Source: a virus (lineage: Duplodnaviria > Caudoviricetes). From it: a stretch of 64,000 nucleotides of DNA. The notes under the pieces were generated by a model. The model saw only the letters and a list, made by a program, of their open reading frames with translations. It searched no databases and was not told the origin of the DNA. Location of the stretch: IMG/VR virus record IMGVR_UViG_3300025575_000001, positions 34,997-98,996 of that record; one strand, given 5' to 3'. The translations under genes were made by a program, and so were the position numbers. Shown one piece after another: positions 6,611 to 28,090 of the stretch (position 1 is its first letter; every line of letters starts with the position of its first letter).

Positions 6611-6613
6611 TAA

Positions 6614-8210: not shown

Positions 8211-8217
8211 TCACTAA

Positions 8218-9225: not shown

Positions 9226-9448
9226 AACAAGCATGTTCGCTGTATTGGGTAGTAGATACCCAGAATTCAACAATCTATCTACAAATCATTTCAGTGAATT
9301 GAATCGTATGAATGAAATCTATCCAATTGTTAGGAAACTCCGTGAAGACTATCCGCAAGCATTGAATGATTTTGCTAGCTATCCTTCAGTCTCCTCAAAA
9401 GAATTGGGACAGAAGATTTTTTCATTCGTGAAGAATAATTTGAATTAA
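9209..9448 (+). CDS. hypothetical protein
   Basis: About 76-79 aa ORF followed by a terminator. Confidence 0.65.
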   Translation: MTIMAKTSMFAVLGSRYPEFNNLSTNHFSELNRMNEIYPIVRKLREDYPQALNDFASYPSVSSKELGQKIFSFVKNNLN

Positions 9449-9461
9449 ACAAAACAAAAAT

Positions 9462-9492
9462 GGGTATGAGGATTAATTTCCTCATTCCCTTT
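9462..9492 (+). terminator. intrinsic terminator
   Basis: GGGTATGAGGA-ttaatt-TCCTCATTCCC stem followed by TTT. Confidence 0.6.
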
Positions 9493-9512
9493 ATAAATTT
9501 AGATAATTAACA

Positions 9513-10013
9513 ATGGAAGAACAACTTGACTTATTTGAAGAATTAAGAGATTTAAAACCTTTTACTATTTCTGAACAATATGATACTCCTGAAAAATACC
9601 TCAAATATTACTTTGCTAATAAACAACCATCTACAAGATTCTCTGGTGGTGCCCCACAATGTCATGCTGGAGTGTTTAGAAGTTTCTTTGATTTATATTA
9701 CCTTACGAGAGCTAGATTCTCAAATGTGACCTTAGAACAGGTTGCAACAATCCTAATCAATTTATGTGAGGATTATGGTAATTCAAGAGTTAGTGTATTC
9801 TACAACACAGATGTAGAAAAAGTAGTATTTGGTAACTTTGAAAACACAAACAGAAATAGTAGCCTCATCTTTGATAAGAGTTGCAGAATGTTTGATATTT
9901 ATGGAATTGATAATTTGTCTTTTTTAGACATTATATCACTTGCTGGTAAAAAATTAAGAGATTTGATTGCAATACAAACCCTTCCCACTCAACCCTGGGA
10001 ACAAACTAGATAA
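9513..10013 (+). CDS. hypothetical protein (paralog of 10015-10521)
   Basis: PEKYLKYYF...QCHAGVFRSFFDLYYLT. Confidence 0.75.
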   Translation: MEEQLDLFEELRDLKPFTISEQYDTPEKYLKYYFANKQPSTRFSGGAPQCHAGVFRSFFDLYYLTRARFSNVTLEQVATILINLCEDYGNSRVSVFYNTDVEKVVFGNFENTNRNSSLIFDKSCRMFDIYGIDNLSFLDIISLAGKKLRDLIAIQTLPTQPWEQTR

Positions 10014-10014
10014 A

Positions 10015-10521
10015 ATGGCTGAAGAAAAGAAATTATATGTGATTCCTCAAGCAATTGTGGATGATTTATCAAGAATGGTACCCTATGTAGGGGGTGAAGA
10101 ATTTACTGATCCTAGAGAATATCTATTGAATTATTTCAAATTATACTCTCCGGCTACTTATTACAATGATGGAACAATACAATGTAGTTCTGGTAGAAAT
10201 AGAAGTTTCCTCGATTTGTACTTCTTAACAAAAGCTCAATTCCCAGAAATCACTCTACAAGAGTTTGCTAAATTGTTTTTCTCATTAGACCAAGAAATTT
10301 ATGGTTCTACAAGTGAACATGAATATCATATGTTTATATATTTTTGCACAAATATTCGTAAACCCGTGATTTATACAAATAAAGCAACCTTTAGATACTA
10401 TTTTATTCAAGATAAAGATTGGTTAAAAACCTATCTTTCATATCCTTCAAACGATATATTGCTTTCCCAAATTTTTGATTTAGCTGAATTAGATTATCAT
10501 CATTTCGTAAAAAAAGATTAA
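10015..10521 (+). CDS. hypothetical protein (paralog of 9513-10013)
   Basis: ATG at 10015; PREYLLNYF...QCSSGRNRSFLDLYFLT. Confidence 0.75.
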   Translation: MAEEKKLYVIPQAIVDDLSRMVPYVGGEEFTDPREYLLNYFKLYSPATYYNDGTIQCSSGRNRSFLDLYFLTKAQFPEITLQEFAKLFFSLDQEIYGSTSEHEYHMFIYFCTNIRKPVIYTNKATFRYYFIQDKDWLKTYLSYPSNDILLSQIFDLAELDYHHFVKKD

Positions 10522-10523
10522 TT

Positions 10524-10865
10524 ATGTATATTGGAGTTTATGGAACCCTTAAAACGGGTCAAAGAGCTAATTCAATGTTAGCAACTGGAACATTTATTGG
10601 AGAATTCAGAACAGAAATCCCATTTCAAATGTATGATTTAGGATCATTTCCTGCACTTGTAAAAACTGAAGAGAATCATCCTATCACATTAGAAGTGTAT
10701 GAAGTCAATGATGAACAAACCCTTAAATCCCTTGACAGATACGAAGGATTTCCATCATTGTATCAAAAAAGTACAGTTCAAGTAAAAGAAATGGATGTAA
10801 CAATCTATACAATGAATTCAATGCGTCACGGTGGTGAACTTATGGAATCTGGTAATTGGAAATAA
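10524..10865 (+). CDS. gamma-glutamylcyclotransferase (AIG2/GGCT family)
   Basis: VYGTLKTG, LGSFPAL, EVYEV, LDRYEG..LY. Confidence 0.9.
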   Translation: MYIGVYGTLKTGQRANSMLATGTFIGEFRTEIPFQMYDLGSFPALVKTEENHPITLEVYEVNDEQTLKSLDRYEGFPSLYQKSTVQVKEMDVTIYTMNSMRHGGELMESGNWK

Positions 10866-10875
10866 ATTAATAATT

Positions 10876-11178
10876 ATGATACTAAAAGCTAAAATTAAAT
10901 GTCAAAATGGATTATTTTTTGCTATATTTTCAAATAGAATATATAATGAATATAATGCATATATATTAAATATTCCAAAAAATTTTAAAAATGAGTTTAA
11001 TAAAGAATTTGAATTTAAAGTTGTTTCTTATATTAGGCCATCTAAAGGATATTTAAATGCACATATAAAAAGATGTGAGGATATATTTAATCTTATTGGA
11101 ACGAACGGAGATACAACCCAAGAAAAAGAATTATTAAAATATGATTACATACCAAATTTAGTAGAATTAATAAATTAG
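10876..11178 (+). CDS. hypothetical AT-rich protein
   Basis: ATG at 10876, 100 aa, ends in TAG. Confidence 0.55.
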   Translation: MILKAKIKCQNGLFFAIFSNRIYNEYNAYILNIPKNFKNEFNKEFEFKVVSYIRPSKGYLNAHIKRCEDIFNLIGTNGDTTQEKELLKYDYIPNLVELIN

Positions 11179-11183
11179 AAAAA

Positions 11184-11963
11184 ATGTTTATACAAATAAG
11201 AAGTAAAAATGATACTGCTGCCTCTCTTAGAGGTCAAGTAGTTACTAGAAAAAGAACAGTCTTACGTTTAGGTAGCAGTACCCCCACAGATCAAATCTTT
11301 CCTGAAGGAGTCCGTCGTGGTAAGGAAATCATTGAAATCAACACAGTTGAAGCTTGTCATAACAGTGGTAACAAAATTACAATGAAACAAATGTTTGATG
11401 CTGTTGGAGTGGTTAGTGCTGAATGGGCGCAAATGAGTAATATTCATGGATACGAAGGTGATCCTTGGGAACATTATCCAGCTATAATTAAACACAAAAA
11501 TTCAAGTAAAGGTAATGGTATTTTTTATATTGAAAATGAACCTGCCCTTGCTGCATTTATACTAGAACACAATTACAATATTAATGACTACATCATTGAA
11601 AAATTCTACAACTATGTAAAGGAATACCGTCTCCATGTCACAAAAGATGGTTGCTTCTACACATGTCGTAAAATGCTTAGGGATGATGCTACTGAACGTT
11701 GGCATCGTCATGACTCCAATTCAGTATGGATTCTCGAAGAGAATGAACTCTTTGCTAAACCAGCAAATTGGGATGAAATAGTTGCAGAATGCGTAAAAGC
11801 TATGACTTCAGTTGGATTGGACATTAGTGCAATTGATATCAAAGTAAGCAATCACAATCCTGCGAGATTTATCATCCTTGAGACAAATAGTGCCCCTGCC
11901 TTGGCAGAAATCACTACCGTTAAATACATTGACAAATTAAAAGCAATAGTAGATGAATTTTGA
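11184..11963 (+). CDS. ATP-grasp ligase (RimK/YheC-like, phiEco32-type)
   Basis: NKITMKQMF, PAIIKH..SKGNGI, KEYRLHV, GLDISAIDI, ILETNSAP. Confidence 0.88.
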   Translation: MFIQIRSKNDTAASLRGQVVTRKRTVLRLGSSTPTDQIFPEGVRRGKEIIEINTVEACHNSGNKITMKQMFDAVGVVSAEWAQMSNIHGYEGDPWEHYPAIIKHKNSSKGNGIFYIENEPALAAFILEHNYNINDYIIEKFYNYVKEYRLHVTKDGCFYTCRKMLRDDATERWHRHDSNSVWILEENELFAKPANWDEIVAECVKAMTSVGLDISAIDIKVSNHNPARFIILETNSAPALAEITTVKYIDKLKAIVDEF

Positions 11964-12720
11964 TGACAAAATAGTAATATACCAATATTATAATTATGTT
12001 AGTTACAAATACAGATTTTTATCTGATAAAGAATTTACAATCATTCCAAGAGCAGCTTGTTTTAGTAAGTTGACATATAATGACTCATATGACCCTAAAG
12101 TAGGTGTTGAAGTGTTAATAGATGCATTTACTGTTCCAAATATGAATGGTTATTGTGCTTTAACAGAAGAAGAACTACTTGCTTGGTTAGCTGAGATTAA
12201 ACAATGGATTGATTATGAGTACACATTAATTAAGGAATCAGATCAATTTGTTATTCAATTAACTACTCATGTTCCTACAGGAGCTTTAAAGATACTTCTA
12301 ACATTAATTAGATTTGCTTTTGAAGCCCCTTTTAGTCTTGCTCTCAAAGAAGCATTTACTGTTGCTAAAAAGGATTATTTCCCTAATACATTAATTCTTC
12401 ATAGGTATCAAACTATTCAAAATAGTATTGACTATCCTACCAATACAAATCATTGTTTTTGTACTTATCAACAAATACCTCTTTTAACTATTGATAAATT
12501 AAAAGAAAAAGTTAAAAACTATACAGGTTATGTAAATACCTTTTTTGGTGGAAAAGGCAATTATAATGGTACATTTGTTGATGAACAAATGAATCTCTTT
12601 ATACGACAAAAATTAGTAAATGTTCAATCTGAATTAAGTATGAAAGATGAAGACATTGCTAATAGAGTAAATAACTTATACATTCCCAATTTTAAAGTAA
12701 CTTATGGACAAACAGATTAA
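11953..12720 (+). CDS. hypothetical protein within the ligase cluster
   Basis: 255 aa ORF overlapping both neighbours. Confidence 0.75.
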   Translation: MNFDDKIVIYQYYNYVSYKYRFLSDKEFTIIPRAACFSKLTYNDSYDPKVGVEVLIDAFTVPNMNGYCALTEEELLAWLAEIKQWIDYEYTLIKESDQFVIQLTTHVPTGALKILLTLIRFAFEAPFSLALKEAFTVAKKDYFPNTLILHRYQTIQNSIDYPTNTNHCFCTYQQIPLLTIDKLKEKVKNYTGYVNTFFGGKGNYNGTFVDEQMNLFIRQKLVNVQSELSMKDEDIANRVNNLYIPNFKVTYGQTD

Positions 12721-14327
12721 AATATATGTAGTGGGTTCATCTAGTGGTTATGCTAGATTTATTCAAAATTCTACACTTGTGAAAGACATGGATCAAGCTG
12801 ATGTGATTCTTTTTACCGGAGGTGAAGATGTAGATCCTCATCTCTATGGAGAAAAAACTCATAAATACACATATTGTACTCCTCAACGAGATGCTTATGA
12901 AATATATGAATATGAACAATCATTGTGTTTTCCTAATACACTTCGCGTTGGAGTTTGTCGTGGGTTAATTTGATGGCCCACGTTAAACAAGGTGAATTGC
13001 TGGAACGCTGTAATGCCAATCAGCAGCTAAGCTATTTAGAAATAAATAGAAAGTTCAACGACTAGAAGTAAGACTAAGTTTGGAAGTAAATTCTCCAAAT
13101 ATGTCGGTAATACTTCCAAGAGCGCCTTGGTTTTTATAAAAATTTATTAATTTTAAAGAATTATTACAAAAAGTTTCAAGTTGATCTAAAGAAGCACAAT
13201 TTTTCATTGCATTTGCCATTCTAGATACAACAATAATATTACCTTTAATATACCCCTTATTATTATCAATTCTATCTATAGAAGCGTGTGATGGATCTTG
13301 TCCGCCACTTTCGTGCATATATGTGAGTTTGATTCCCAAATAAGGGCAATATTCTGGAATTTCTAAATCTTGATAGGTTAGATTAAATTCTAATCCTCTT
13401 CTTTTTGACATAAATTTTGTATTTCTAATCATGTATCCTCTTATTCGGTCATGTTGATTTAAATACACCCTTTCTGGCATTTTTGGAAGTAATCCTAAAA
13501 GATTTCGTATTTCTGATAATCTTTGTTCGTACATATTCTTCTTTTTAAATAAAGGATGTTCTTGCAACCAAAGCACTATCTCAGAATTTTTGGTACTATT
13601 GTTATAAATTTCAGTAAATTCTTCTTTAAAATTAGGATAATTTAATATTTGTTTAATTGTAGAAGCAGAAGGAATATTTAAACCTCTTTTTAATGAGGAT
13701 ATCTAATCATTATTTACATGATACTCTCTTGCTAATTCTACAACTAATTCTCCTTGCATTAATCTTTTAATAATTTCTTGTTCATTCATAATTTTTAATT
13801 TTATGTAAAGATACAATAAATTATTGGAATATGCAACAGGTTAAACAAATTACTAATTATTCATAAATAAATTGCTTATAAAAATATGATATAGTCTGAA
13901 CTATAGGGAATAATAACCTATAGAATCTAAGGATAAAGAGCCTTAGAGATAACATAATGCTCAATTACTAACTGTCTTAAATGGTGGTAAACTTGTGCAA
14001 GATGTCACTAATCATGTTGGTAGAAGTCATCAAGTATTAACCACAGATGGTCAAATACTTGAATGTACATCTACTCATCACCAAATGGCTTATCCATACA
14101 ACATACCTAAAAAGGACTATGAGATACTTGCTCATACATTTCCAAAATTGTCTAAACACTACGAAGGTAGTGGAATCAATTGGGAAGATCAATTTCAAGA
14201 AGTAGAAGTAATCTATTTCCCAAAAACAAACTCTCTAGGAGTTCAAGGACATCCAGAAATGATGGAGTTAAATTCTCCATTTGTTAACTATATCAATGAA
14301 TTAATAATCACTAAATTAAATAAATAA
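12704..14327 (+). CDS. class I glutamine amidotransferase / peptidase C26-like, spliced: join(12704..12965,13960..14327), 209 aa
   Basis: Exon 1 has FTGGEDVDP..RD..E..GVCRG. Splicing restores GVCRG-SQLLTVLNGGKL. Exon 2 has STHHQ and GVQGHPE, completing the Cys-His-Glu triad. Confidence 0.9.
13055..13789 (-). CDS. intron-encoded HNH-like homing endonuclease, antisense to its intron, 244 aa when TAG is read as Gln
   Basis: ATG at 13789 in A-rich context, one in-frame TAG at 13703-13705 (codon 29), TGA at 13055. Motifs CPYLG, ASIDRIDNNKGYIKGN, ANAMKN. Confidence 0.85.
13806..13837 (-). promoter_or_regulatory. putative Bacteroidota sigma-70-type promoter for the antisense endonuclease
   Basis: The minus strand reads GTTG-N20-TATCTTTA, close to the consensus TTTG-N19/21-TAnnTTTG, 16 nt upstream of the ATG. 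Confidence 0.6.
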
Positions 14328-15199
14328 TGGCATATACTCTTATAGAACATGTTACTATTGGCACAGATCCTGAATTATTTATTGTAAATACAAAGACTGG
14401 TTTAGTTGTATCTTCAATTGGTCTTATTCCAGGACATAAAAATGATGCCTTCTTACCTGAAGGATTTCAAAAAGGTTTTGGTTTACAGACTGACAATGTA
14501 TTGGCTGAATTTAATGTTCCACCAATTCATTTAACTTCAGGAGCAAGTAAAGTATTCAGTACACAAATTACTCAAATGAAAGAGTATATCAAGGATTTTG
14601 TAAAAAAAGTCAATCCTGATTATGACATTCTGTGTAGTGCTTCTGAATTAGTTCCAGATGACCAATTACAAAGTGATGAGGCTAAACAATTTGGATGTGA
14701 CCCCGATTACAATGTATACACTCTGAGTCAAAACGAAACTCCTGAAGGGGTTAAAACTAACTTGAGGAGTACTGGTGTTCACATACATGTGGGATACCAT
14801 GAAAACAATCTAACAACCTCTTTAGCTCTGTTAAAAGTTTTAGATTTATATCTTGGAGTACCTTCAGTTTTGATTGATCCTGATACAAGGAGACGTTCTC
14901 TCTATGGTAAAGCTGGTTGTTTTCGTCTTACTGACTATGGTGTTGAATATAGAGTATTATCTGGTTACTTCATCAAAGATGAAATCACTACTACTTGGGT
15001 TCTTCATCAAACTGCAGCAGCAATTGATTATTACAACAAGTGTCTTCGAGAGTATTCCAGTAATTTCCATACAGAACCATTTGCTATTGATAATTACTTA
15101 CCATCTGAAGAAACTGTATTCAATAGTATCAACAATGGTAATGTTGCATCAGCAAGAAGAATTGTAAAAAAATATCAAATTGCTCTCATAAGAGAATAA
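14327..15199 (+). CDS. phiEco32-like COOH-NH2 ligase (type 2)
   Basis: GTDPELF, DNVLAEFN, FGCDPDYN, LRSTGVHIHVGY, RRSLYGKAGCFR, YGVEYRVLS. Confidence 0.92.
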   Translation: MAYTLIEHVTIGTDPELFIVNTKTGLVVSSIGLIPGHKNDAFLPEGFQKGFGLQTDNVLAEFNVPPIHLTSGASKVFSTQITQMKEYIKDFVKKVNPDYDILCSASELVPDDQLQSDEAKQFGCDPDYNVYTLSQNETPEGVKTNLRSTGVHIHVGYHENNLTTSLALLKVLDLYLGVPSVLIDPDTRRRSLYGKAGCFRLTDYGVEYRVLSGYFIKDEITTTWVLHQTAAAIDYYNKCLREYSSNFHTEPFAIDNYLPSEETVFNSINNGNVASARRIVKKYQIALIRE

Positions 15200-15252
15200 C
15201 AGAGAATTTAAAATTATTCTTTGAATTTTTTAATTAAACACAGATAAAATAA

Positions 15253-16785
15253 ATGTTAAATATAATTTTAAGTTTTTTACTTGCTCATACAATTCTCTTC
15301 CTATTCCTCAAACCCAAATTAACCAATCTATTTTGTGGACTATTTGGCTATGTAGGAATTGCAAGAAAATTTGATAAAAAGACCTTTTACACACTTGGTT
15401 GCATTAATGACACCAGAGGAGGAGACTCCTGTGGTGTATTTATTGATGGAGAAGTAGAATATGGGGTTGATAAAGAGAAACTGTTTACCAATTTCTATGA
15501 GACTAGTATATTATTAGAAAATACTAAGGTAGCTAAAATAGCCATAGGCCATTGCAGAAAAGCATCTGTTGGTGCAGTAGGAGTTACTACAGCTCAACCA
15601 GTTGTAATTAAAAACAAAGAAACTAAGGAAACTGAGTTTGTTTTGATTCACAATGGCACTCTTTTAAATCATAAAGCTCTAGCAAACAAGTATTTAAAGG
15701 ATACTCCTGATACATTCACAGATAGTCAAATTATGGCTTATATCATTTATTTCAAAGGATTTGAAGTATTGACTGAATATGAAGGAGCTGGTGCATTTGT
15801 AATGATAGACTATAGAAAGAATAGAGAGAATCCTGATGTCTATATGTTTAAAGGAGAATCTCTTCAATTTCATTACTCTAAGGAAACCTGTGAAGAAAGG
15901 CCTTTATATTTTTCTATTGAAGATAGAGGTATTTGGTTTTCTTCAATTGCTCAATTCTTAGATACTACAAGATATGGTGAAGGAGATGTTCGTAATGTAA
16001 AATGTAATCATTTGTATCATATCAAAAGTGGTGTAATCAAATCTCGTACATTTATGGACAGAAGTAAAAGACATCAGTCTGGATCTACTGTTTATAACTA
16101 CAATAGTTACAGTAGTTATGAAAGACCTACTCCAATGCTTCCTATTAGACCAAGTAATCCCCCTGCAAATTATACTGCAGGAGCTAATTCTTCTATATTT
16201 GTTTGTGATGTTTTTACAAAACCTACATTTAATATATCAGGTAAGTTAATATTTGTTGATGGTTTCTATTATATTGATGGTAAAAAAGCACATGGTAAAC
16301 ATGAATTGAATGAATATGGTTATACTCCAACTACATATAGAGCTAATATTAAAGATTTTTGGTTCTTTGATGGAGTATTATTGTATAATGAAACCTGTTT
16401 TGACATAGTATGTGGATTACAGGACAAATTTCAATTTGAAGATATCACTGGCTATGTAGACAGTTTTCCAGAAACAGTTTATTGTTACAGTCCTCAAGTA
16501 TACTTTGACACAAATGATAAGAAATTTGTTAAATGGGAAAAGAATTTGAGTTCACAATTCACTGGTAAAATGGGTATTATTTTAGATCAAGATGATACTG
16601 AATACAATTTTACTAATGGTGTTTTGAAAACAAAGACTACTTATACATATTGTGTAAATAAAAGACAAATAATTGTATTTGAAGAGAAAGCAAAAGAATT
16701 TAAAACTCTTGACAAAGATGATGAAATCCTCAGAATGTGTCTCTTACTAAATTGGTTTGATAATGAAAATAAAGATAATAATTAA
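15253..16785 (+). CDS. class II (Ntn) glutamine amidotransferase with a hydrophobic N-terminal leader
   Basis: CGLFG, RGGDSCG, GHCRKAS, AQP, HNGTL, TDS. Confidence 0.9.
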   Translation: MLNIILSFLLAHTILFLFLKPKLTNLFCGLFGYVGIARKFDKKTFYTLGCINDTRGGDSCGVFIDGEVEYGVDKEKLFTNFYETSILLENTKVAKIAIGHCRKASVGAVGVTTAQPVVIKNKETKETEFVLIHNGTLLNHKALANKYLKDTPDTFTDSQIMAYIIYFKGFEVLTEYEGAGAFVMIDYRKNRENPDVYMFKGESLQFHYSKETCEERPLYFSIEDRGIWFSSIAQFLDTTRYGEGDVRNVKCNHLYHIKSGVIKSRTFMDRSKRHQSGSTVYNYNSYSSYERPTPMLPIRPSNPPANYTAGANSSIFVCDVFTKPTFNISGKLIFVDGFYYIDGKKAHGKHELNEYGYTPTTYRANIKDFWFFDGVLLYNETCFDIVCGLQDKFQFEDITGYVDSFPETVYCYSPQVYFDTNDKKFVKWEKNLSSQFTGKMGIILDQDDTEYNFTNGVLKTKTTYTYCVNKRQIIVFEEKAKEFKTLDKDDEILRMCLLLNWFDNENKDNN

Positions 16786-16787
16786 AC

Positions 16788-18116
16788 ATGGCTAACGAAC
16801 AAACAGTTTTTGATCACGAATTTCAACGTGAAGTAGTCATTGGATCTCCTGAAGCTAGAGGATTAATTCAAGGTATAATTGGTGTAAGAGGAAGAGTCCA
16901 TGATTTAGGATACTTCACAGTCAATCTTACTAAAAACATCACAGTCCAATTTAGAGGAGGTACTTATAATGCCCTCTCTAAAGACATTTTTGTTGAGAAA
17001 TTCTTAGTATTTGACAACAATACAGGTAAATATAGCTACAATGCTGGACAAGACAATATTGTTCAAATTAAAGCATTTGCTACTCATAAAGGTAATGGTC
17101 AATTCCCTTATCACAATATCCGTAGAGAATACAATGCTGAGAATAATTTACAAAAATTTGGTGCTTTGGCTAAACCGTCTCATATAATTAAATCCAATAA
17201 TAAGGCTCTTATACCCTTTACATTTGGTTTAGAATATGAAACCTCTTGTGGTTACATTCCAGAAGAAGAATGCTTTAGAACAGGTCTAATTCCTCTTAGA
17301 GATGGTTCTATCACAGGTATTGAATATGCTTCTGTTGTTTTAGATTCTTCTAAAGGAGGATTTGAACTATTAGAAGAACAATTGGAATTATTAAGAAAAT
17401 ATACTGAATATGATAAGGAGTGTTCCCTCCATATCCATTTTGGTAATTTTCCAGTAAGTCAAAAAGCTATTGGTGTTTTATATATGCTGGCTGAATCACT
17501 TCAGGCTTGCATGTACCATACAGGACTGCTTCCAAAATATACATTTGATACTAAGGCCTACAAAGCAAGTGGTAAAGATTATTGTAAGCTTTTACCTGCT
17601 TATAATAGTTTTGAAGGAATCTACAATTTCCTTAGTGGGGGAACACCATTTTTAGGAAGTTTAACTATTCCTCATCCTGGAGATCAACGTCATGAAGCTA
17701 AGTGGAATGTGCATTCTCGTTACTATCAGATTAATCTTATCAACATGTGTTTCTATAACTCTCCTAAGACTGTAGAAATGAGGTTCTTAAGACCTTCTTA
17801 CAATTTTAACAAAATTGTTAATTGGATATTCATCTTTTCAGCTATGTTGCAGTATGCAATTGATTTTGCTAAAAAGAATAAAGGAATGTCTGATGATACA
17901 ATTTATAGAACATTTCATAAAATGTTTCCAGGAGAGCCTAATGATTTCCAAAAAATATTCACAAGTGTATATTCCCCAGAGATTACACAAGAATTGAATA
18001 CATTTATGGACAATCTTAGAATCATTGTTAGAAAACAAGGTCAATTAAATGATGGAATTGGTAAATTAGATACATTTGATGATCCAATTATCACTACAAA
18101 CTGTCTACAACGATAA
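16788..18116 (+). CDS. putative amidoligase (COOH-NH2 ligase fold)
   Basis: TFGLEYET, RDGSITGIEYAS, CSLHIHFG, RYYQIN, KTVEMRF. Confidence 0.85.
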   Translation: MANEQTVFDHEFQREVVIGSPEARGLIQGIIGVRGRVHDLGYFTVNLTKNITVQFRGGTYNALSKDIFVEKFLVFDNNTGKYSYNAGQDNIVQIKAFATHKGNGQFPYHNIRREYNAENNLQKFGALAKPSHIIKSNNKALIPFTFGLEYETSCGYIPEEECFRTGLIPLRDGSITGIEYASVVLDSSKGGFELLEEQLELLRKYTEYDKECSLHIHFGNFPVSQKAIGVLYMLAESLQACMYHTGLLPKYTFDTKAYKASGKDYCKLLPAYNSFEGIYNFLSGGTPFLGSLTIPHPGDQRHEAKWNVHSRYYQINLINMCFYNSPKTVEMRFLRPSYNFNKIVNWIFIFSAMLQYAIDFAKKNKGMSDDTIYRTFHKMFPGEPNDFQKIFTSVYSPEITQELNTFMDNLRIIVRKQGQLNDGIGKLDTFDDPIITTNCLQR

Positions 18117-18826
18117 TGATTTTAGCTCCTTTCCAGAGATGGAAAAACCTAATAGATGTTAAAGCATTAGGAGACATTCTTTCAATTCTAGAAGTTGCCT
18201 ACAAAGTAGTAGGAGTTACTCCAGAAAAGAAAGATGTCTTCAATTGCTTTACTGAATGTCCTTATGATAAACTCAAAGTGGTTATGATTGGTTTAGATCC
18301 ATATCCACAAAGAGGAATAGCTACAGGATTAGCATTTGCAAATAAGGAGGGTACTAAAGAAATTAGTCCCCCCTTGTCTGTTTTAAGAGATGCTCTTTTC
18401 AATCCCCACAATCCACCAATTTGGCCTAATGGAGAAAATATAGAACAATTAAAGAATAATTTTGACATTACCCTCAAATATTGGGCTAATCAAGGAGTAC
18501 TTCTTTTAAATTCTGCATTGACTGCTAAAATAAATGCATCTGAATTGCATCTTGATTTGTGGAGACCATTTATAGTAACTCTTTTAACAGAACTCTCTCT
18601 TAGAAACCCTGGAATAGTCTATATTTTATATGGTACTATTGCTAAAAATTTAGGAGTATACATTAATCATACTAATAATCTTGTATTAACATCGGATCAT
18701 CCTTCTTATTATTCAAGATACAACAAAGAAATGGATGATGAAGTGTTTATTAGTGCAAACAATTACTTAAAAGAACACTATGGGGAAACAATTGATTGGT
18801 ATGGAGTCAGAAATTCCAAAGATTGA
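18116..18826 (+). CDS. ung: uracil-DNA glycosylase, family 1
   Basis: KVVMIGLDPYP, ATGLAF, WANQGVLLLNSALT, HPS. Confidence 0.9.
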   Translation: MILAPFQRWKNLIDVKALGDILSILEVAYKVVGVTPEKKDVFNCFTECPYDKLKVVMIGLDPYPQRGIATGLAFANKEGTKEISPPLSVLRDALFNPHNPPIWPNGENIEQLKNNFDITLKYWANQGVLLLNSALTAKINASELHLDLWRPFIVTLLTELSLRNPGIVYILYGTIAKNLGVYINHTNNLVLTSDHPSYYSRYNKEMDDEVFISANNYLKEHYGETIDWYGVRNSKD

Positions 18827-18995
18827 TGAAAAATTAACTAAAATTAATCCTGATTATCCAATTTTTAAATGTTTAATGGATTATCATAATGATTTTGGAA
18901 CACATCCTGATAATTACAAAGATTTAATGAATTATCTTGATAAACAAACTAATGAATTTAAAATCTATTATGAATCTAGAAGAAGACTTGGATGA
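18801..18995 (+). CDS. small hypothetical protein
   Basis: ORF overlapping both neighbours; ATG at 18801. Confidence 0.5.
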   Translation: MESEIPKIDEKLTKINPDYPIFKCLMDYHNDFGTHPDNYKDLMNYLDKQTNEFKIYYESRRRLG

Positions 18996-19452
18996 CCAAT
19001 TAGAAAATAAAAAAATATTAAATACAAGAAGAGTCTTATATGATAACATCCAATTTAGAAGTAAGTTAGAAGTAGCTTGCTACAAACGATTAGTCATTGC
19101 AGGATTCACTCCTTTATATGAGCCCCATAAATTTAGTCTAATTGAAAAATTAGTTCTTGATAGAGTGCAATACTTTTGCCCCTATAAAGAAAAAAAACTA
19201 AAGAAGTATGGTACATATCCAAGGGATTTAATGGGAATAAGTTATACACCAGATTTTTATATCCTCTACAAAAACATTCACATTTATTTCGATACTAAAG
19301 GCCATCCTAATGATGTATATCCTTTAAAGAAAAAGATGTTTTTGAGAAAATTAGAAGAGCTCGCTGTTGAATCAGATGAGGCTTATATGTTCTTTGAACC
19401 CCACAACATTAGTCAAATACAACAAAGTATTAATACAATATTAGCGTTATGA
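18970..19452 (+). CDS. PD-(D/E)XK nuclease (DUF1064 / T7 endonuclease I-like)
   Basis: FRSKLE, YEP, YTPDF, FDTKG. The start is uncertain. Confidence 0.75.
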   Translation: MNLEEDLDDQLENKKILNTRRVLYDNIQFRSKLEVACYKRLVIAGFTPLYEPHKFSLIEKLVLDRVQYFCPYKEKKLKKYGTYPRDLMGISYTPDFYILYKNIHIYFDTKGHPNDVYPLKKKMFLRKLEELAVESDEAYMFFEPHNISQIQQSINTILAL

Positions 19453-19760
19453 GTTTATTAAAAGATATAATTAATCTTAGTGAAAAACTTCCCGAAAAGG
19501 ATAAACTTTACTTTGACAAATTTATTCAAGAAAGAAAATTTGAAGATGCTTTAAATTTAATCAATTCTATAATTTTTTTATCAGAAAAAGCGGAAGATCG
19601 TAATAATGATTACAGTTTTATAAATTTAGATAAAAAAAATCATAATTACAATTATTTAAATTTAGATAAGGAATCAATTCTATTATTGCAAAACTATTTA
19701 GTAAAATACTTAGATCAACTCAATATTGAATATGAATCTAACTTAAATATGAATGATTAA
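19449..19760 (+). CDS. hypothetical protein
   Basis: 103 aa ORF coupled to the upstream gene by an ATGA overlap. Confidence 0.65.
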   Translation: MSLLKDIINLSEKLPEKDKLYFDKFIQERKFEDALNLINSIIFLSEKAEDRNNDYSFINLDKKNHNYNYLNLDKESILLLQNYLVKYLDQLNIEYESNLNMND

Positions 19761-20796
19761 AAAAAGTATCAAAGATTTAGCTTGGGATGTTACTGAAGAC
19801 ATTTATAGAGCATCCCCAGCTCTTTCTTATTCCACATTAGCCACTTTTGAAAGAGAAGGGGCTAAATGTATTCCTACTCTACGAGATAAAAAAACATCTG
19901 AACCACTTAGGTATGGATCTCTTGTAGATACATTAATGACGGCTCCTGAAGAAATGGAAGATAAGTTCTACATTGCTCAAATAAGTAAACCATCTGAAGC
20001 CATTGCTTCAATTGCTAATTTAGTTTGGGAGCAAAGTGATAAATCAATTAAAACCTTAGCACAATTTCCACAAGAAACCCTTTTAAAAATTGCAAATGAT
20101 CTCAGTTATGGCATGTTTTGGAAAGAAGCCACTCGATTAGATAAAATCATAGGAGAAGGTTCTACTTATTTCAAACAACTCGCATTAGCAGGTAACAAAA
20201 TGATAGTTTCAGATGCTGATTATGCATTAGCTCAATCAAATATTGAAACACTTAAACTTCACAAATTTACAAAAGATTTATTCTACGATAATCCATTTGA
20301 AACAGATATTGAAGCCCACTATCAATTGAAATTTAAAACTTCATTTGAGGGATTAGAAGTACGCATGATGGCAGATAGGATAATTTGCGATCACGCAAGA
20401 AAAATCATTTATCCAATTGATTTAAAAACTACAGGCAAGCCAGAAGAGCATTTTGATGAATCCTTCGTAACTTGGTCTTATTGGATACAAAGTAATATGT
20501 ACTCCCAAATTCTTGAGAAACTAATCTCTGAAGATGAATACTTCAAAGATTTTACAGTTTACTCATTTGAATTTGTATGTATCAATCGTTATGCCAAATC
20601 TCCCCTCATTTGGGTAGACCACAATAACTTGATTACAGGAGATAGATTAGACAATAATGGAATTCGCCATAAGCATTGGAAAACCCTCGCAAAGGAGCTT
20701 AAATGGCATTTAGATAGCGGTATTTACAACTACTCATATGATTCAATGATGAATAACGGAGTAAGAGTACTAAACAGTATAAAAATTATACAATGA
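19753..20796 (+). CDS. PD-(D/E)XK exonuclease (RecE/ExoVIII-like)
   Basis: YRASPALSYS, GSLVD, RMMADRI, IDLKTT, YWIQSNMY. Confidence 0.8.
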   Translation: MIKKSIKDLAWDVTEDIYRASPALSYSTLATFEREGAKCIPTLRDKKTSEPLRYGSLVDTLMTAPEEMEDKFYIAQISKPSEAIASIANLVWEQSDKSIKTLAQFPQETLLKIANDLSYGMFWKEATRLDKIIGEGSTYFKQLALAGNKMIVSDADYALAQSNIETLKLHKFTKDLFYDNPFETDIEAHYQLKFKTSFEGLEVRMMADRIICDHARKIIYPIDLKTTGKPEEHFDESFVTWSYWIQSNMYSQILEKLISEDEYFKDFTVYSFEFVCINRYAKSPLIWVDHNNLITGDRLDNNGIRHKHWKTLAKELKWHLDSGIYNYSYDSMMNNGVRVLNSIKIIQ

Positions 20797-23700
20797 CACA
20801 AGAACTATTGAATTATTTCAATGGAGATACAATGGCTTCCCAAGTTTGGTGGGATAAATATGCTTTACAGGATACAGAAGTAACTCCTGATGATATGCAT
20901 AAACGTTTGGCTAAGGAATATGCTCGAATAGAGGTTAAATATTGTCGATTACCAGAAGAAGATTTTCATTATGAAAAATTGTCTGAATATGGTAAAACTA
21001 GAGCAGATTATCATAGTGCTGTAGGGCAAATGACTGAAAATCCAAAGGATTTAGCTGCATTATCATATGTAGAGCAATTTGAAAAAGATATTTATAACCT
21101 ATTCAAAGATTTCAAATACATCATTCCCGCAGGTTCAGTAATGGCCAATTTAGGTAAAGACACGCCAACCAGTTTAAGCAATTGCTTTGTTTTAGGTCAA
21201 CCTAAGGATAATATTGAAAGTATATTTAATTATTCTAGAGATTCTGCACAACTATTTAAACGTAGAGGTGGAGTAGGAATTGATTTGTCTCTCCTTCGCC
21301 CTAATGGAGCTGGAGTTAAGAATGCATCAAATAGTTCTACAGGACCTATATCTTTTATGAATATATATGATGCAACTACTAAAACGATTGGACAAGATGG
21401 TAGAAGAGCTGCATTAATGCTTTCATTAGATATTAGACATCCAGATTCACCTGAATTTGTTAGATGTAAGGAGGATAAATCTAAAATTACAGCCGCTAAT
21501 ATTTCATTAAAAATTGGTAAAGATTTTATGGAAGCGGTTGCTAAGGATGAAGATTTTATTCTTAGGTTTCCTGTAGAACAAGATTTATCTTATTTTTCAG
21601 AAAATTATTTGGAATGTCCTTATAATACAATGATTTATTTAGAAGACCATAAAAGAAATAATGAAGTTTTCTATATCAAAAGAATTAAAGCAAAAGAACT
21701 TTGGAACAGTATTTGTCAACATGCTCATGATGATGCAGAACCAGGGATTATATTTGAAGATAACCATCTTGAATATGATCCTGCCGCAGTATACCCTGAT
21801 TATAAACCAGTTACAACCAATCCATGTGGTGAAATCTTCATGGGTCCAAAGGACTCTTGTCGACTAAGTGCAATCAATTTATATTCATTTGTAGATCAAC
21901 CCTTTAGTAAAACTCCATCAATTGATTTTGAAAAACTCTACGAAGTCTCATATGAACAATTAGTTCTATCAGATGATTTAGTAGATTTAGAAATTGAAGC
22001 AATTGATAGGATTTTAGATAAGATTAATCCTACTTATTTGAATGAATTTGTAAGATATAATGAAGTTGCAAAACATCTATTTACGAAACAACAATCAGAG
22101 GAATTCAAGCTCTGGTGGGAAATTAGGGAAAACGGTAGAAAAGGTAGACGAGTAGGTAATGGTTTTACAGCTCTTGGAGATATGATTGCAGCAATGAATT
22201 TGAAATATGGTTCTGATGAATCATTAGAATTAATTCAATCTGTTTTACATACAAAAATGCAAGCAGAATTAGATGCTTCTATTGATTTAGCTATTCTTAG
22301 AGGTTCTTTTGATGGATTTAATCCAGATTTAGAATATATTTCTACTCAAAAGATGGGGGGTGTATCTATTTCAGGAACAAATACATTCTATGATACAATC
22401 TATCAAATGTTCCTAACACAAGTAGATAGAATGCGTCAATATGGAAGGAGAAATATTTCAATTTCAACTGTTGCTCCAACGGGTACCGTAAACAACCTTG
22501 CGGCATAATAAAGTAATTTATTATGAGAATCGGATGAATTGCTGGAAAGCTAAAATTAATTAAATTATTTATTTAAACACTAGGAATTGTCGATTATTTA
22601 TTGTACCTTTGCGGAATTGAACCCGTAAAAATTAAAAAAATGAGTAAAAGAAAACATTTTCCTATTGTTGGAACAAGATTTGGAGAATTTACAGTTATTG
22701 ATGAAGAACTTGTAAAATCTAAAGATGCAAAAATACTTTATCATGTAAAGTGTTCTTGTGGAAAAGAACAATTTGTCAGAGCTTATTTCTTAGAAGTAGG
22801 TAGACAAACTTGTTGTAAAGAATGTAGAAGTAAAATAAATTATGAAAAAGCGATAAAAAATGGAACTAGTATTGGTTTTATAAAATTACACCATGAAGGT
22901 ATTGGTAATTTTACAAAAACAGCATATAATCATTTTAAAAGAAATGCTAAAAGAAGAGATATAGAGTGGTCTAAAGATTTAACTCTTGAGTTCTTATATA
23001 ATTTATTATTAAATCAAAATAGAAAATGTGCTCTTTCTGGTGTAGATATTGATCTAACCGAGTTTAGAAAGGGTAGTAATGTAAATTTTGAATTTATGAC
23101 TGCATCTTTAGATAGAATTGATTCTTCTAAAGACTATAACCCAACAAATGTTCAATGGGTACACAAAGATGTAAATAGAATGAAATGGGCACTTGACCAA
23201 GACTATTTTATTTAGATGTGTGCTAAAATAATTAATCATGCTAATCAGCAGCCAAGTTAGGAATAAATTCCTAAACGGTTCAGAGACTACCTGAGCAGTA
23301 AATCTGCTTAATAACAGGAAGTAGTATAGTTTAGTCACTATATGAAAAAGAGTCCGATACCCTAGTAATAGGGTAGTGATATAGTCCACACTTATATGAA
23401 AATATAAGATAATGTGAAGTTTATTAACACAAACTACTTCAGGAATTGAACCTCTATTCAAAGCTGTCTATAAAAGGAGAGTTAAAGTAGAAGAGGGGGC
23501 TTATGATTTCAAAGCTGAAGATGGTCAACTCTTTAAAGAGTATTTAGTAGTACATCCCAAATTGGCTGATTTTGCAGCAAATAGTCTTGGATATCTAAAA
23601 GAAGTCATTGCTAAATTCACAGAAGATGATTGGAACAATATTTATAAGCAATCTCCTTATTTTGAAAGTACAGCTAATGATATCTCTTGGAAAGATAGGA

Positions 23701-24431
23701 TAGACTTACAAGCATTAGTTCAACAATATACCACTCACTCCATTAGTTCTACGATTAATCTCCCCAAAGGTACAAAAGTAGAAGAAGTAGATCAATTATA
23801 CCGATATGCCAATGAAAAGAATTTAAAAGGTATTACAGTCTATGTTGATGAATCAAGGGAAGGAATATTAGTTACTAATAACCCAAATAAAGGCTTATGG
23901 AAGGCCACAGAGGGACGTAGAGCACCTGAGAGACCTAAAGTATTATCAGCTAAATTAACCCCCGTTAAATCAAAGGGAATTAACTATGCAGTAATTGTAG
24001 GATTCTTAGAAGGTAAACCATATGAAGTATTTGCATATGAATTAGATACTGAAGAAAAGGCTTGTGAAGGTCATGTGATTAAAATAAAAAGAGGAGTTTA
24101 CAATTTCGTATCTCCCACTTATACAGTATCAAATCTTCAATTAGCTGCAGAAAAGGTAGAAGAAAAGGCTTGTACACTATACACATCAATGCTTCTTAGA
24201 GAAGGTGCTGAAATTAATCACATCATCAAAACAGCTAAAAAGGTTAATGAAAACATTAGTTCCTTTAGTTCAGCAATGTGTAGAGTATTAGCCAAATATG
24301 CTCCAAAAGAATACAGTAGAGATCTTTGTCCCAAATGTGGACAACCACTCAAGCATGAAAACGGTTGTATCAAGTGTGATTCTTGTACTTACAGTGCGTG
24401 CTTCTTAATGTATAAACATAAAACAATTTAA
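20793..24431 (+). CDS. nrdJ: class II (B12-dependent) ribonucleotide reductase, spliced: join(20793..22489,23417..24431), 903 aa
   Basis: SLSNCFV, RRGGVG, TNPCGEI, CRL. Splicing restores TVAPTGTV-SLLTQTTSGIEP. C-terminal TSCPD-like domain and CPKCG..GC..CDSC zinc ribbon. No small-subunit gene is adjacent. Confidence 0.9.
22604..22611 (+). promoter_or_regulatory. putative Bacteroidota -7 promoter element for the intron endonuclease
   Basis: TACCTTTG is an exact TAnnTTTG match, 28 nt upstream of ATG 22640. Confidence 0.6.
22640..23266 (+). CDS. intron-encoded HNH-like homing endonuclease, 208 aa when TAG is read as Gln
   Basis: CSCGK..CCKEC, CALSG, ASLDRIDSSKDY, NVQWVHKDVNRMK. The TAG at 23213 interrupts the C-terminal helix DQDYFI*MCAKI. 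A second TAG is at 23258 and TAA at 23264. Confidence 0.85.
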
Positions 24432-24433
24432 AA

Positions 24434-24988
24434 ATGATAGGATCAATAATAGTCATCGTAATTCTTATAGGCGTATATGGTAAATTCATGGCTAATCATA
24501 TTACTAAGGTAATGAAAGAAGAATTTCAGTATCATCTTGGTTTAGTCAAGAAAGATACTAACTTATTTCAAGATACCATATCTTTTAAAACCAGTTATTT
24601 AAAAGGAGATTCACAACTTCCTGTTTTACAACTTAAAGTAGAGGGCAGACTCTGTAATCTACTTTTAGACACAGGGGCTAATCTCAACATTTTAAATGAA
24701 TCTGTTTTTAATGAAATCAATATTAACAATAAAATAGAAGTAATCAAATGTAAGGATAACATCATTTTTGGTGGTGGATCTGAAGAACAAATAGGAACAG
24801 CTAAATTAAAATTCTCATATCAAAGAGTCAAATTTAATGATGATTTTGATATTATTGATGTCAGTAAAGCCTTCAATGAATTTCATGAAAAAACTGGAGT
24901 TCTTATCGATGGTATTTTAGGAAATCAATTCTTTAAAACAAATCAATGGAGTCTCGACTTCGATAAAATGGTAGTATGGGTGAAATAA
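24434..24988 (+). CDS. membrane-anchored retropepsin-like aspartic protease
   Basis: N-terminal TM segment, LLLDTGAN, IDGILG. Confidence 0.85.
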   Translation: MIGSIIVIVILIGVYGKFMANHITKVMKEEFQYHLGLVKKDTNLFQDTISFKTSYLKGDSQLPVLQLKVEGRLCNLLLDTGANLNILNESVFNEININNKIEVIKCKDNIIFGGGSEEQIGTAKLKFSYQRVKFNDDFDIIDVSKAFNEFHEKTGVLIDGILGNQFFKTNQWSLDFDKMVVWVK

Positions 24989-25242
24989 TTAAATTAAAAT
25001 CAAGGTATTCTAATGTCAAGTCTATATTGAAACAGATGATTCCTTTGAATTCTGACAATGAGAATACTTTTAAACTTGTTACAGATGCTCAATCAGTCAG
25101 ATGTGGTTATATGGAAGATGGCTCATTTTGGATTGATCCAGAAGGGGGACCAATGCTTCAAAAAGGAAATACAATTGAAGGAAGAGTGATTAAAAATATC
25201 ACTCATTCTTATGAAGTAGGCTACATAATTACTTTTGAATAA
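24976..25242 (+). CDS. hypothetical protein
   Basis: 88 aa ORF containing IDPEGGPML. Confidence 0.7.
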   Translation: MGEIIKLKSRYSNVKSILKQMIPLNSDNENTFKLVTDAQSVRCGYMEDGSFWIDPEGGPMLQKGNTIEGRVIKNITHSYEVGYIITFE

Positions 25243-27153
25243 ATGCTTACAGAAGTTTATGATTTAGAAACAATCATAAATCTTTTTACTTATACTGGAT
25301 ACTGTTTACAAGATAAACAATATTATCAATTTGTTATACATGATTCTGTCAATCAATTAGAAGAGTTAGTTGCTCATCTGAAAAGACCTCAACTAGTACA
25401 AGTAGGATTCAATAATGAAAACTTTGATTATCCACTTATACATCACATTCTCTCTAATTATGAACGGCTACAATATCTCACAGGCTCTGAAATAGCTGCT
25501 GAACTCTATGAAGAGGCTCAGCGGTTAATCAGAGGTGAGGAATACAATGTAGTCCCTGATAGGAAGAAATATATATCACAAATTGATTTATTTTTGATTT
25601 GGCATTATAACAATGCTGCTAGAAGAACAAGTCTAAAAGATTTAGAATTTGCTATGAATATGCAAAATATTGAAGAAATGCCTATAGCACACAATCAATA
25701 TTGCCGATGGGAAGACATATCAAGTGTACTCTTGTACAATAAAAATGATGTAGAAGCGACTGTTTTATTCCTAGAGGCAACTCTTGGACAAACAGATTAC
25801 TCACTGTACAAAAAGAAGAATAAACTCGCTTTAAGATTTCAATTAGCTAAAAAATTCAATATTCCCTGCAACAATTATCCTGATGTCAAAATTGGTGAAC
25901 AATTAATGCTTCAACTCTATTCAAGAGCAACTGAAAAGAATCCTTGGGATGTTAAGAAATTAAGAACTCCTAGAGAATCAGTTGATTTAAAAGACTGCAT
26001 CCCACCTTGGTGTCAAATAAGATCAAAAGAATTTAATCGATTCTTAGAACTCATCAAAAACACTAAAGTAAAAGGAGATAAAAAGGAATTTGCACATTCA
26101 ATCATCTTTCATGGAATCTCATTTGATTTTGGTTTAGGTGGAAGTCATGGATGTATCAACTCAGGAATATATAAATCTGATGAATCTGGAGTCATTTTAG
26201 ACTTAGATGTGTCATCTCTATATCCCTCAGTAGCAAAATCATTAAATGCATTTCCTGCACACTTAGGAATTGAATTTATGGATTTGTATAGTCAATTTAT
26301 TGAAGCTAGACTTGCTGAGAAGAAGAAACCTAAAGGAGAAAGAGATGAAGTACTAATTGAAGGATACAAATTGATTTTAAATGGCACATATGGTAAGTCT
26401 GGTGAAGACACTTCATTCCTATTTGATAAACTCTACACATACAAAACAACTATTGCTGGTCAATTGTTCATATGTATGTGGGCAGAACGAATGGTTGAAG
26501 TTTGTCCTGAGTTACAGTTTATTCAAATTAACACTGATGGTATAACCATTAAACTCCCTAAAGAAAAGATTCCTCTTATCATGGAAGTATGTACACAATT
26601 GACCAAAGAGACTACTCTTGAAGTTGAAGATGCTTACTATAGTCAAATGGTTATTAGGGATGTCAATAATTATATGGCTCAATATTCTGATGATATTGAA
26701 CATATCAAATATAAAGGCTGTTTTGAAATTGACAAGGAATACCACAAAGACAATTCAATGCGAATTGTTCCTATTGCTTTAAAGAATTATTTCATCAACA
26801 ACACACCCATTTCAGACACAATTAGAACTCATAAAAACATATATGACTTCTGTATTAGATTAAAATGCAATCACTCCAGTAAAGCTTTATACAGCTATTT
26901 AGATGAAGATGACCGAGTTAAAGACTTAATTCTCTCTCGTACAACTAGATATTTCATTAGCAAAAAAGGTGGTGCATTGAGTATTTATTATAATGGTGCA
27001 ACTAATCCTAATAAAGTAAACAAGGGTTACACAGTTACTCTATTCAATAATTTTGTTGAACGAGAGGACTACAACATCAACTACAAATTCTATGAGATTG
27101 AAACTAACAAAATCATAGATACAATTGTAGATAATCAATTAAATATGTTTTAA
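25243..27153 (+). CDS. polB: DNA polymerase, family B
   Basis: Exonuclease motifs YDLE, GFNNENFDYP, YNKNDV; polymerase motifs DVSSLYPS, KLILNGTYGK, NTDG. Confidence 0.93.
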   Translation: MLTEVYDLETIINLFTYTGYCLQDKQYYQFVIHDSVNQLEELVAHLKRPQLVQVGFNNENFDYPLIHHILSNYERLQYLTGSEIAAELYEEAQRLIRGEEYNVVPDRKKYISQIDLFLIWHYNNAARRTSLKDLEFAMNMQNIEEMPIAHNQYCRWEDISSVLLYNKNDVEATVLFLEATLGQTDYSLYKKKNKLALRFQLAKKFNIPCNNYPDVKIGEQLMLQLYSRATEKNPWDVKKLRTPRESVDLKDCIPPWCQIRSKEFNRFLELIKNTKVKGDKKEFAHSIIFHGISFDFGLGGSHGCINSGIYKSDESGVILDLDVSSLYPSVAKSLNAFPAHLGIEFMDLYSQFIEARLAEKKKPKGERDEVLIEGYKLILNGTYGKSGEDTSFLFDKLYTYKTTIAGQLFICMWAERMVEVCPELQFIQINTDGITIKLPKEKIPLIMEVCTQLTKETTLEVEDAYYSQMVIRDVNNYMAQYSDDIEHIKYKGCFEIDKEYHKDNSMRIVPIALKNYFINNTPISDTIRTHKNIYDFCIRLKCNHSSKALYSYLDEDDRVKDLILSRTTRYFISKKGGALSIYYNGATNPNKVNKGYTVTLFNNFVEREDYNINYKFYEIETNKIIDTIVDNQLNMF

Positions 27154-27444
27154 ATGTCTGAAGAAAAATCTATAAGATACAATGAAGGTAAACCAAAGTG
27201 GGGTTATGTCCACTTTGAATCCCTTGTACCAATGATTCGTGTACTTGAATTTGGAGCCAAAAAATATGAGCCAGATAACTGGAAAAAAGGATTAGATTTA
27301 AAAGAAATCCTTGAGTCACTTCAACGGCATCTCGCTAAACTTATGGACGGTGAGGAGAATGATGAAGAAACTGGGATTTCACATATGGGCCACATTCAAT
27401 GTAATGCGATGTTTTATAATTACCATAAAAATAAACAAAAATAA
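27154..27444 (+). CDS. dATP/dGTP diphosphohydrolase-domain protein (DUF5664-like)
   Basis: RYNEGKPKW, VLEFGAKKYEPDNWKKG, SLQRH, DEETGISHMGHIQCNAMF. Confidence 0.85.
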   Translation: MSEEKSIRYNEGKPKWGYVHFESLVPMIRVLEFGAKKYEPDNWKKGLDLKEILESLQRHLAKLMDGEENDEETGISHMGHIQCNAMFYNYHKNKQK

Positions 27445-27447
27445 CAA

Positions 27448-27921: not shown

Positions 27922-28090
27922 AGATTCAGTAATCAGTATTCACATTTCTGGTGATAAAGAAATTAACACATTTCAATCTATTGTTGAAAAAACATTTTCA
28001 CAAAATAGAATGATGGGGTTTAATCGAAACAAACTCACAACAGAAGAGAGTGATTTTTTAGAACAAATATACCAAAATATTAGAAAATGA
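27908..28090 (+). CDS. small hypothetical protein
   Basis: ATG at 27908; coupled to its neighbours. Confidence 0.5.
   Translation: MEIIKDSVISIHISGDKEINTFQSIVEKTFSQNRMMGFNRNKLTTEESDFLEQIYQNIRK

Follow-up and report, generated by a model that had tools for sequence, protein, structure and literature searches.

In-frame TAG codons in three homing endonuclease genes of the standard-code early arm of a two-code crAss-like phage

The window analysed here is a 64-kb stretch of DNA from a 98,996-bp phage genome (IMG/VR record IMGVR_UViG_3300025575_000001, genome positions 34997-98996), in which two early genes, encoding a glutamine amidotransferase and a ribonucleotide reductase (RNR), are each interrupted by a group I intron with an endonuclease gene of its own (Table 1). 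Both endonuclease genes, together with a third paralog located in the genome outside the window, contain in-frame TAG codons within a genome arm whose other genes contain none. Two of these TAG codons are found again, at identical codons, in diverged homologs. Positions refer to the window unless they are marked as genome positions.

Two genetic codes and two intron-borne endonucleases

Judged by its sequence, the source of the window is a gut crAss-like phage resembling the Steigviridae; a TAG-free structural protein of 418 amino acids (aa) shares 60% identity with its counterpart in crAss-like phage cr128_1 (Steigviridae, Asinivirinae, Mahlunavirus). The genome is written in two codes, with TAG read as glutamine (Gln) in the late arm and the standard code used in the early arm. 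Open reading frames (ORFs) of the + arm (219..29962) can be read through in the standard code, and those of the - arm (30348..64000) require TAG=Gln, with 19-53 TAG codons per large gene. Counted over the whole genome, internal TAG codons number 281 in 16,524 codons of the late arm (39% of all Gln codons), 0 in 12,495 codons of the + arm genes other than the endonucleases (0%), and 4 in 653 codons of the three endonuclease genes (15%). The difference between the endonucleases and the rest of the early arm is significant (Fisher p = 6e-6), and a first-pass annotation of the window, which had described the host exons and the other + arm genes as free of in-frame TAG, is correct on this point. 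Given that some + arm genes end in TAG, this codon terminates translation in the early arm; the early gene at 10831-11199 (+), for example, stops at a TAG (11176-11178) beyond which the late code would add 7 residues up to a TAA, and a few further + arm genes likewise terminate in TAG.

Intron 1 interrupts the early amidotransferase gene (Peptidase_C26/GATase), whose two exons, when joined, encode an in-frame 204-aa protein bearing the Cys...His-Pro-Glu signature (GVCRG...GHPE) and no in-frame TAG. The splice sites were set by eye; as read from the sequence, U12965 closes the 5' exon and G13974 is the last base of the intron. In a permissive search, intron 1 matched Rfam family RF00028 with 40.9 bits (E 1.1e-8), under the gathering score of 50. 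Endonuclease 1 is encoded antisense to the intron, with its last codons overlapping the P7 segment, and consists of an N-terminal helix-turn-helix (HTH) domain (Pfam HTH_28, weak) followed by a C-terminal His-Me/HNH-like nuclease (PHROG matches phrog_3322, endonuclease, 1.9e-26, and phrog_3118, HNH, 4.5e-15). More than 100 full-length homologs were found.

Intron 2 interrupts the RNR gene. By tblastn the two RNR exons, neither of which contains an in-frame TAG, align end to end on the uninterrupted RNR of cr128_1 with the junction APTGTV/SLLTQ, which places the intron at 22490-23416, with borders (U22489 / G23416) read from the sequence. Its match to RF00028 in the permissive search (29.8 bits, E 2.4e-5) is again under the gathering score of 50. 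Endonuclease 2 combines an N-terminal Cys4 module with a His-Me/HNH-like nuclease and has 1,225 homologs; its final ~8 codons also make the P5'/P4'/P6 strands of the intron. With Rfam gathering thresholds no intron is reported in the window, and the intron matches came from the permissive searches only. The cores are split by large ORFs, which lowers RF00028 scores; taken together with the exon junctions, the matches indicate that both introns are real. A DNA-level search of a phage collection gave no close relative, only fragments of intron core.

A profile built from the homologs identified exactly three members of the endonuclease family in the whole genome, the third being a free-standing gene of the + arm. 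All three proteins match phrog_3322 'endonuclease' (1e-16 to 1e-26), phrog_3118 'HNH endonuclease' and phrog_1035 'endonuclease VII'; in Pfam, the nuclease domain of the endonucleases is without a match. The AlphaFold model of endonuclease 2 contains a strand-strand-helix arrangement at residues 168-197, for which the best Foldseek matches in the PDB are HNH nucleases (PacI 3ldy, E 7e-3; Cas9 HNH; Gme HNH), all of them weak and none at E <= 1e-3. The DRID motif of the family has Arg where the usual first His stands. A profile search against PDB sequences returned only a zinc-finger match, to the N-terminal module.

Table 1. Coordinates of the intron-bearing genes, the endonuclease genes and associated features. 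Positions are those of the window except where the genome is named.
Feature	Position	Strand	Remarks
Exon 1, early glutamine amidotransferase (Peptidase_C26/GATase)	12704..12965	+	Ends ...GVCRG, as does fragment 12704-12973; no in-frame TAG; Pfam PF07722, profile positions 51-115, E 5.6e-9
Group I intron 1	12966..13974	+	P1-P7 ~12956-13070; P7' GATATAGTC ~13889; RF00028
Endonuclease 1, 244 codons, antisense to intron 1	13055..13789	-	ATG 13789, TGA 13055
In-frame TAG, endonuclease 1 codon 29, inside HTH	13703..13705	-	'cta' on + strand
Promoter-like -7 box TATCTTTA, endonuclease 1	13806..13813	-	16 nt before ATG; consensus match only; kept upstream of homolog L020
Exon 2, amidotransferase	13975..14327	+	...FLNGGKLVQD...GHPE
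Exon 1, RNR	20793..22489	+	Ends ...APTGTV; no in-frame TAG; Pfam PF02867 2e-65; tblastn, cr128_1 RNR residues 1-524
Group I intron 2	22490..23416	+	Endonuclease ORF in P5 loop; 5' half AATTGCTGGAAAGC ~22537 read from sequence
Promoter-like -7 box TACCTTTG, endonuclease 2	22604..22611	+	28 nt before ATG; consensus match only
Endonuclease 2, 208 codons with TAG=Gln	22640..23266	+	ATG 22640; TAG 23213, TAG 23258, TAA 23264
Internal in-frame TAG, endonuclease 2	23213..23215	+	C-terminal helix; 24 nt before intron core strand (P5'/P4') GCTAATCAGCAGCC
Second TAG, endonuclease 2	23258..23260	+	Usual stop position of homologs; then GAA TAA
Exon 2, RNR	23417..24431	+	Starts SLLTQTTSGIEP...; tblastn, cr128_1 RNR residues 521-854
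Recoded late (virion) arm, for reference	30348..64000	-	TAG = 39% of Gln codons, whole late arm of genome
Third paralogous endonuclease, free-standing, outside window	genome 30718-31257	-	In + arm; in-frame TAG at codons 33, 105, 179

Conserved TAG codons, promoter-like boxes and a suppressor tRNA

Translation of endonuclease 1 confirmed the TAG reported at codon 29. All 7 of the closest homologs have Gln at this position (7/7), and an 87% identical endonuclease 1 from another sample and sequencing run (homolog L020) has TAG at the same codon; L020 carries a further TAG, at codon 76, and the gene in the window uses a standard Gln codon there. Comparison of the two genes gave a ratio of nonsynonymous to synonymous substitution rates (dN/dS) of 0.25 overall, 0.25 over codons 30-90 and 0.30 over codons 1-90. 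Codons 30-90 are informative because they would be untranslated if the TAG terminated synthesis and ribosomes started again at the internal GTG, and the ratio beyond codon 29 indicates purifying selection on the far side of the TAG. In the third endonuclease, the TAG at codon 105 (TAG105) falls in an alignment column where Gln is invariant across 25 sequences, and it is again TAG in homolog L107, whose nuclease domain is 80% identical. The TAG codons are thus not private to one strain, being found at the same codon in the 87%-identical and the 80%-identical homolog.

Both TAG codons that the first-pass annotation had noted in endonuclease 2 are present, and they differ in kind. TAG 23213 lies, as had been stated, within a helix (residues 200-214, confidently modelled by AlphaFold, pLDDT 83.7), and alignment of the homologs places an invariant Cys two residues past it. 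TAG 23258, in contrast, occupies the position at which homologs normally stop: 22/26 aligned homologs end there (...NHANQQGS/PS/PN; QQGS/QQPS/QQPN), which identifies it as an ancestral stop position inside P6, and reading through it adds two residues before the TAA. Homologs L021 and L022 have a stop other than TAG at the equivalent position.

Across the three genes the internal stops are TAG in 4/4 cases, with no TAA, TGA or frameshift. Only 15-20% of the single-base nonsense changes possible in these genes give TAG, such that four out of four by chance has a probability of ~0.2^4. All invariant residues of the family are intact in the three endonucleases. Gene callers applying the standard code had yielded 173-aa and 204-aa fragments of the endonuclease genes, and short, broken ORFs in the 'standard-code' arm of two-code phages therefore deserve to be read again in the late code.

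Upstream of all three endonuclease genes stands the sequence TTTATTGTAyyTTTr, followed by an A-rich leader that ends AAATTAAAAA..ATG. The Bacteroidota -7 promoter consensus is TAnnTTTG, and the boxes match this type of consensus 22-30 nt before the ATG, with A at the last position in endonuclease 1 (TAnnTTT[GA] occurs genome-wide at a frequency of 0.0023 per position). At the same spacing a box precedes several - arm genes, among them the TAG-free gene that lies immediately before the suppressor tRNA described below; before + arm genes no box was found at that position. The claim that each endonuclease has its own Bacteroidota-type promoter, resembling those of the - arm, agrees with these results at the level of consensus matching. 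Homologs L020, L107 and L024 have the box upstream as well, so that, by the same matching, it appears to travel with the endonuclease cassette.

The genome encodes a suppressor tRNA with anticodon CTA (CUA) at genome c[17730-17803] (ARAGORN; Rfam tRNA 49.8 bits), outside the window; no tRNA genes were detected inside the 64 kb. It lies directly downstream of the TAG-free gene bearing the host-type promoter box, and this placement, at the head of the - arm, suggests that tRNA(CUA) may be made after the early phase. At genome 17403-17803 (-), corresponding to L001:407-804, tRNA(CUA) and a tRNA-Thr are ~250 nt apart, separated by an unusually G+C-rich spacer. An Rfam search beside the suppressor tRNA, spacer included, returned no theta/HDV-like ribozyme and no other family.

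Proposed timing of endonuclease synthesis by the code switch

We consider it probable, with some reserve, that the early arm, otherwise free of TAG, harbours three intact and selected endonuclease genes which yield full-length products only when TAG is read as sense, and that tRNA(CUA) thereby gates their synthesis to the late phase. Before the suppressor acts, host release factor 1 would still terminate at UAG and only fragments of each endonuclease would be made: 28 aa of endonuclease 1, 32 aa of the third endonuclease, and an endonuclease 2 missing half of its last helix and the invariant Cys. Full-length endonucleases would appear alongside the late proteins once tRNA(CUA) is active, and could cut the intron-less alleles of co-infecting relatives. 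Such an intron-less RNR target allele is present in cr128_1, a close standard-code relative. It is plausible that the suppressor does not act until later in infection, that the truncated forms are inactive, and that the arrangement is an adaptive timer rather than a tolerated by-product. If so, these genes offer a natural example of a published idea, namely that a change of code in mid-infection schedules selfish genes in addition to virion and lysis genes.

Several results weigh against gating of this kind. The endonuclease genes are clearly but only lightly recoded: TAG makes up a smaller share of Gln codons than in the late arm (15% and 39%, p = 0.02), and the description of the endonucleases as written in the late code was therefore an overstatement. 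Reading TAG as Gln suits endonuclease 1 and the third endonuclease but does less well for endonuclease 2, in which TAG 23213 is aligned with E/N/D in homologs. A stop at TAG 23213 costs only ~15 residues, so that the truncated endonuclease 2 might stay active, and conservation of the last ~8 codons of endonuclease 2 is confounded by constraints on the intron core RNA. Relatives bearing TAG were found in one other sample only. Internal TAG is missing from three endonuclease 1 homologs whose contigs had been gene-called with TAG=Gln, indicating that the pattern is not general, and ordinary decay is seen among other family members, one example being the frameshifted N-terminus of homolog L018. 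Degenerate DNA patterns with TAG at the conserved codons, run against viral and metagenome contig collections, gave chance matches only.

Other surveys bear less on how often the TAG codons recur. None of the IMG/VR loci found for the endonuclease 1 family has an internal TAG, and all terminate in a TAG stop. For endonuclease 2 we surveyed 80 IMG/VR loci of the family; tblastn picks stop-free segments, and nearly all of these came from standard-code phages, making this survey uninformative on TAG recurrence. The closest phage on deposit, cr128_1, is not recoded (0 TAG in the 2,432 codons of its RNA polymerase gene), the locus examined in cr111_1 has no in-frame TAG, and in both cr111_1 and cr116_1 the endonuclease ORFs are without in-frame stops; with no in-frame TAG in the genes examined, these phages provide no test of recurrence either.

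Among the alternatives, the one that survives best holds that the TAG codons are a passive marker: the endonucleases would be transcribed from their own host-type promoters during the - arm phase, changes from CAG or CAA to TAG would be neutral, and the TAG codons would simply record late expression. We regard this as possible, with a substantial minority share of our confidence. It draws on the likeness of the promoter-like boxes to those before - arm genes, on the intermediate TAG share of 15%, which fits recent mobile arrivals from standard-code phages that have become partly adapted, on the absence of TAG from most family members in other phages, and on the one TAG in each homologous pair that is unshared (codon 76, for example, is TAG in L020 only). 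It accounts less well for the retention of TAG at one and the same codon by each of the two diverged pairs, one of which, where measured, has a synonymous divergence (dS) of ~0.3; and whatever the origin of the codons, a single TAG blocks early translation, with the same functional consequence. The data fit both a selected timer and drift into genes already expressed late. The low TAG share, the TAG-free homologs from contigs called with TAG=Gln, and the largely standard-code membership of the family lean to drift, and the fact that each diverged pair keeps TAG at identical codons leans, weakly, to a selected timer.

It is decidedly unlikely that the shorter standard-code products, a 173-aa endonuclease 1 starting at GTG 13576 and a 191-aa, TAG-terminated endonuclease 2, are the functional forms. 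While the standard-code ORF at 13055-13576 holds the entire nuclease domain and the truncated endonuclease 2 retains the DRID...N...K nuclease motif, purifying selection acts on codons 1-90 of endonuclease 1 and the HTH is conserved throughout the family, the TAG of the third endonuclease falls within the nuclease domain, ahead of the DRID motif, and the tail of endonuclease 2 bears the invariant Cys. Decay into pseudogenes, by which the TAG codons would be nonsense mutations in endonuclease genes being lost after intron fixation, is least probable of all and is rejected for this genome: homing endonuclease genes do decay (L018 as above, and an in-frame TGA in L017) and TAG 23213 is not aligned with Gln, but TAG stands at identical codons in the diverged L020 and L107, selection is purifying downstream of the endonuclease 1 TAG, TAG105 occupies an invariant Gln position, TAG is the only type of stop in genes free of frameshifts, and every invariant family residue is intact.

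A further extension of late gating by tRNA(CUA) is speculative and rather unlikely. The TAG codons would be selected switches and not products of drift, and the code switch would toggle intron 2 from 'splice' to 'home'. Ribosomes halting at TAG 23213, before the catalytic core, would protect splicing of the RNR mRNA early on; with the suppressor present, read-through would yield active enzyme at the cost of splicing an RNR message that is no longer needed. Were such a toggle to operate, functional spread of these elements would be confined to phages that carry the suppressor.

Comparison with known systems and neighbouring features

The first-pass annotation presented timing of homing by the code switch as previously undescribed. 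This cannot be upheld, since Borges et al. (bioRxiv 10.1101/2021.08.26.457843, section 8) had proposed the same principle for TGA-recoded Agate phages, in which an early gene contains a group I intron endonuclease; in-frame stops should delay production of that endonuclease until late infection, and the endonuclease family prefers TGA for Trp (p = 1.3e-3). The two systems share a recoded stop in the endonuclease of a self-splicing intron within an early, standard-code gene. They differ in the codon (here TAG=Gln, not TGA=Trp) and in lineage (here a crAss-like phage related to the Steigviridae). Moreover, the genome described here has three paralogs, of which one runs antisense to its intron and another stands alone, and the recoded codon, preferred in the Agate family, is not preferred here (15% of Gln codons). 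What is new is the TAG version in a Steigviridae-like crAss phage, with three paralogs per genome and a TAG at an invariant Gln, together with the conservation of TAG positions in a second phage and the placement of one TAG shortly before a strand of the intron core.

In crAss-like phages, recoding of late genes with TAG has been described together with suppressor tRNAs, dense introns and a TAG in the TerL intein (Yutin et al. 2021, PMC7886860). The phage analysed here resembles the TAG-recoded crAss-like phages of that study and of Borges et al. in having tRNA(CUA), TAG=Gln mostly in late genes and a replication arm in the standard code. In both papers the recoding is biased towards lysis and tail genes, and TAG in early-arm endonucleases is not reported in them.

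In phage T4, the endonuclease I-TevI has a late promoter. Its translation is held back by an RNA hairpin over the ribosome-binding site, and the ORF of the td intron lies in a peripheral loop with its 3' end extending into the core ('core creep'), where ribosomes impair splicing (Edgell, Chalamcharla & Belfort 2011, PMC3073962). Endonuclease 2 has the same layout, with an ORF in a peripheral loop and a 3' end reaching the intron core, but the proposed brake differs, being a stop codon, later turned into sense, 24 nt before the core strand. Endonuclease 1 is comparable to I-DirII of Didymium iridis, a homing endonuclease gene antisense to its group I intron and with its own promoter (PMC3073962), as it too is encoded on the strand opposite the intron and has a promoter of its own, in this case a predicted one. 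I-DirII, however, belongs to a eukaryotic rDNA intron and has a Pol II promoter and a spliceosomal intron, whereas endonuclease 1 resides in a protein-coding gene of a phage, and its antisense arrangement is kept at the same Peptidase_C26 site in every related contig examined.

The Peptidase_C26 gene is split identically, with an antisense ORF between its halves, at nine loci; a further three (L007, L008 and L018) match less completely. In every related contig examined (L002-L008, L017-L019, L024, L108, L109) the endonuclease 1 family member is antisense and flanked by both Peptidase_C26 halves, and the natural stop of the family, usually TAG, falls on the strand opposite intron segment P7. 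The split amidotransferase is one gene of a conserved early cluster (11184-18116, +), retained in related phage contigs, that also contains COOH-NH2 ligase, GATase_6/7 and Amidoligase_2-type genes.

The endonuclease 1 homolog of L017 (L017:9776-10510, +) has a single in-frame TGA, in a column that is Trp in some homologs and Phe in others, and a neighbouring ORF (L017:2566-3510, -) needs read-through of four TGA codons; L017 may be a TGA=Trp recoded relative with the same endonuclease pattern. In L107 (375-1022, +), a nuclease domain of the third-endonuclease type is fused to a different N-terminal HTH, which replaces the Cys4 module and suggests that domains may be shuffled within the endonuclease family. 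Directly adjoining the stop codon of the third endonuclease gene, genome 30222-30705 (+), equivalent to L001:13223-13706, matches the Rfam transfer-messenger RNA (tmRNA) model with 65.8 bits (gathering 47, E 8e-25) and large internal insertions. This match may represent a phage-encoded tmRNA, possibly invaded or flanked by the mobile endonuclease.

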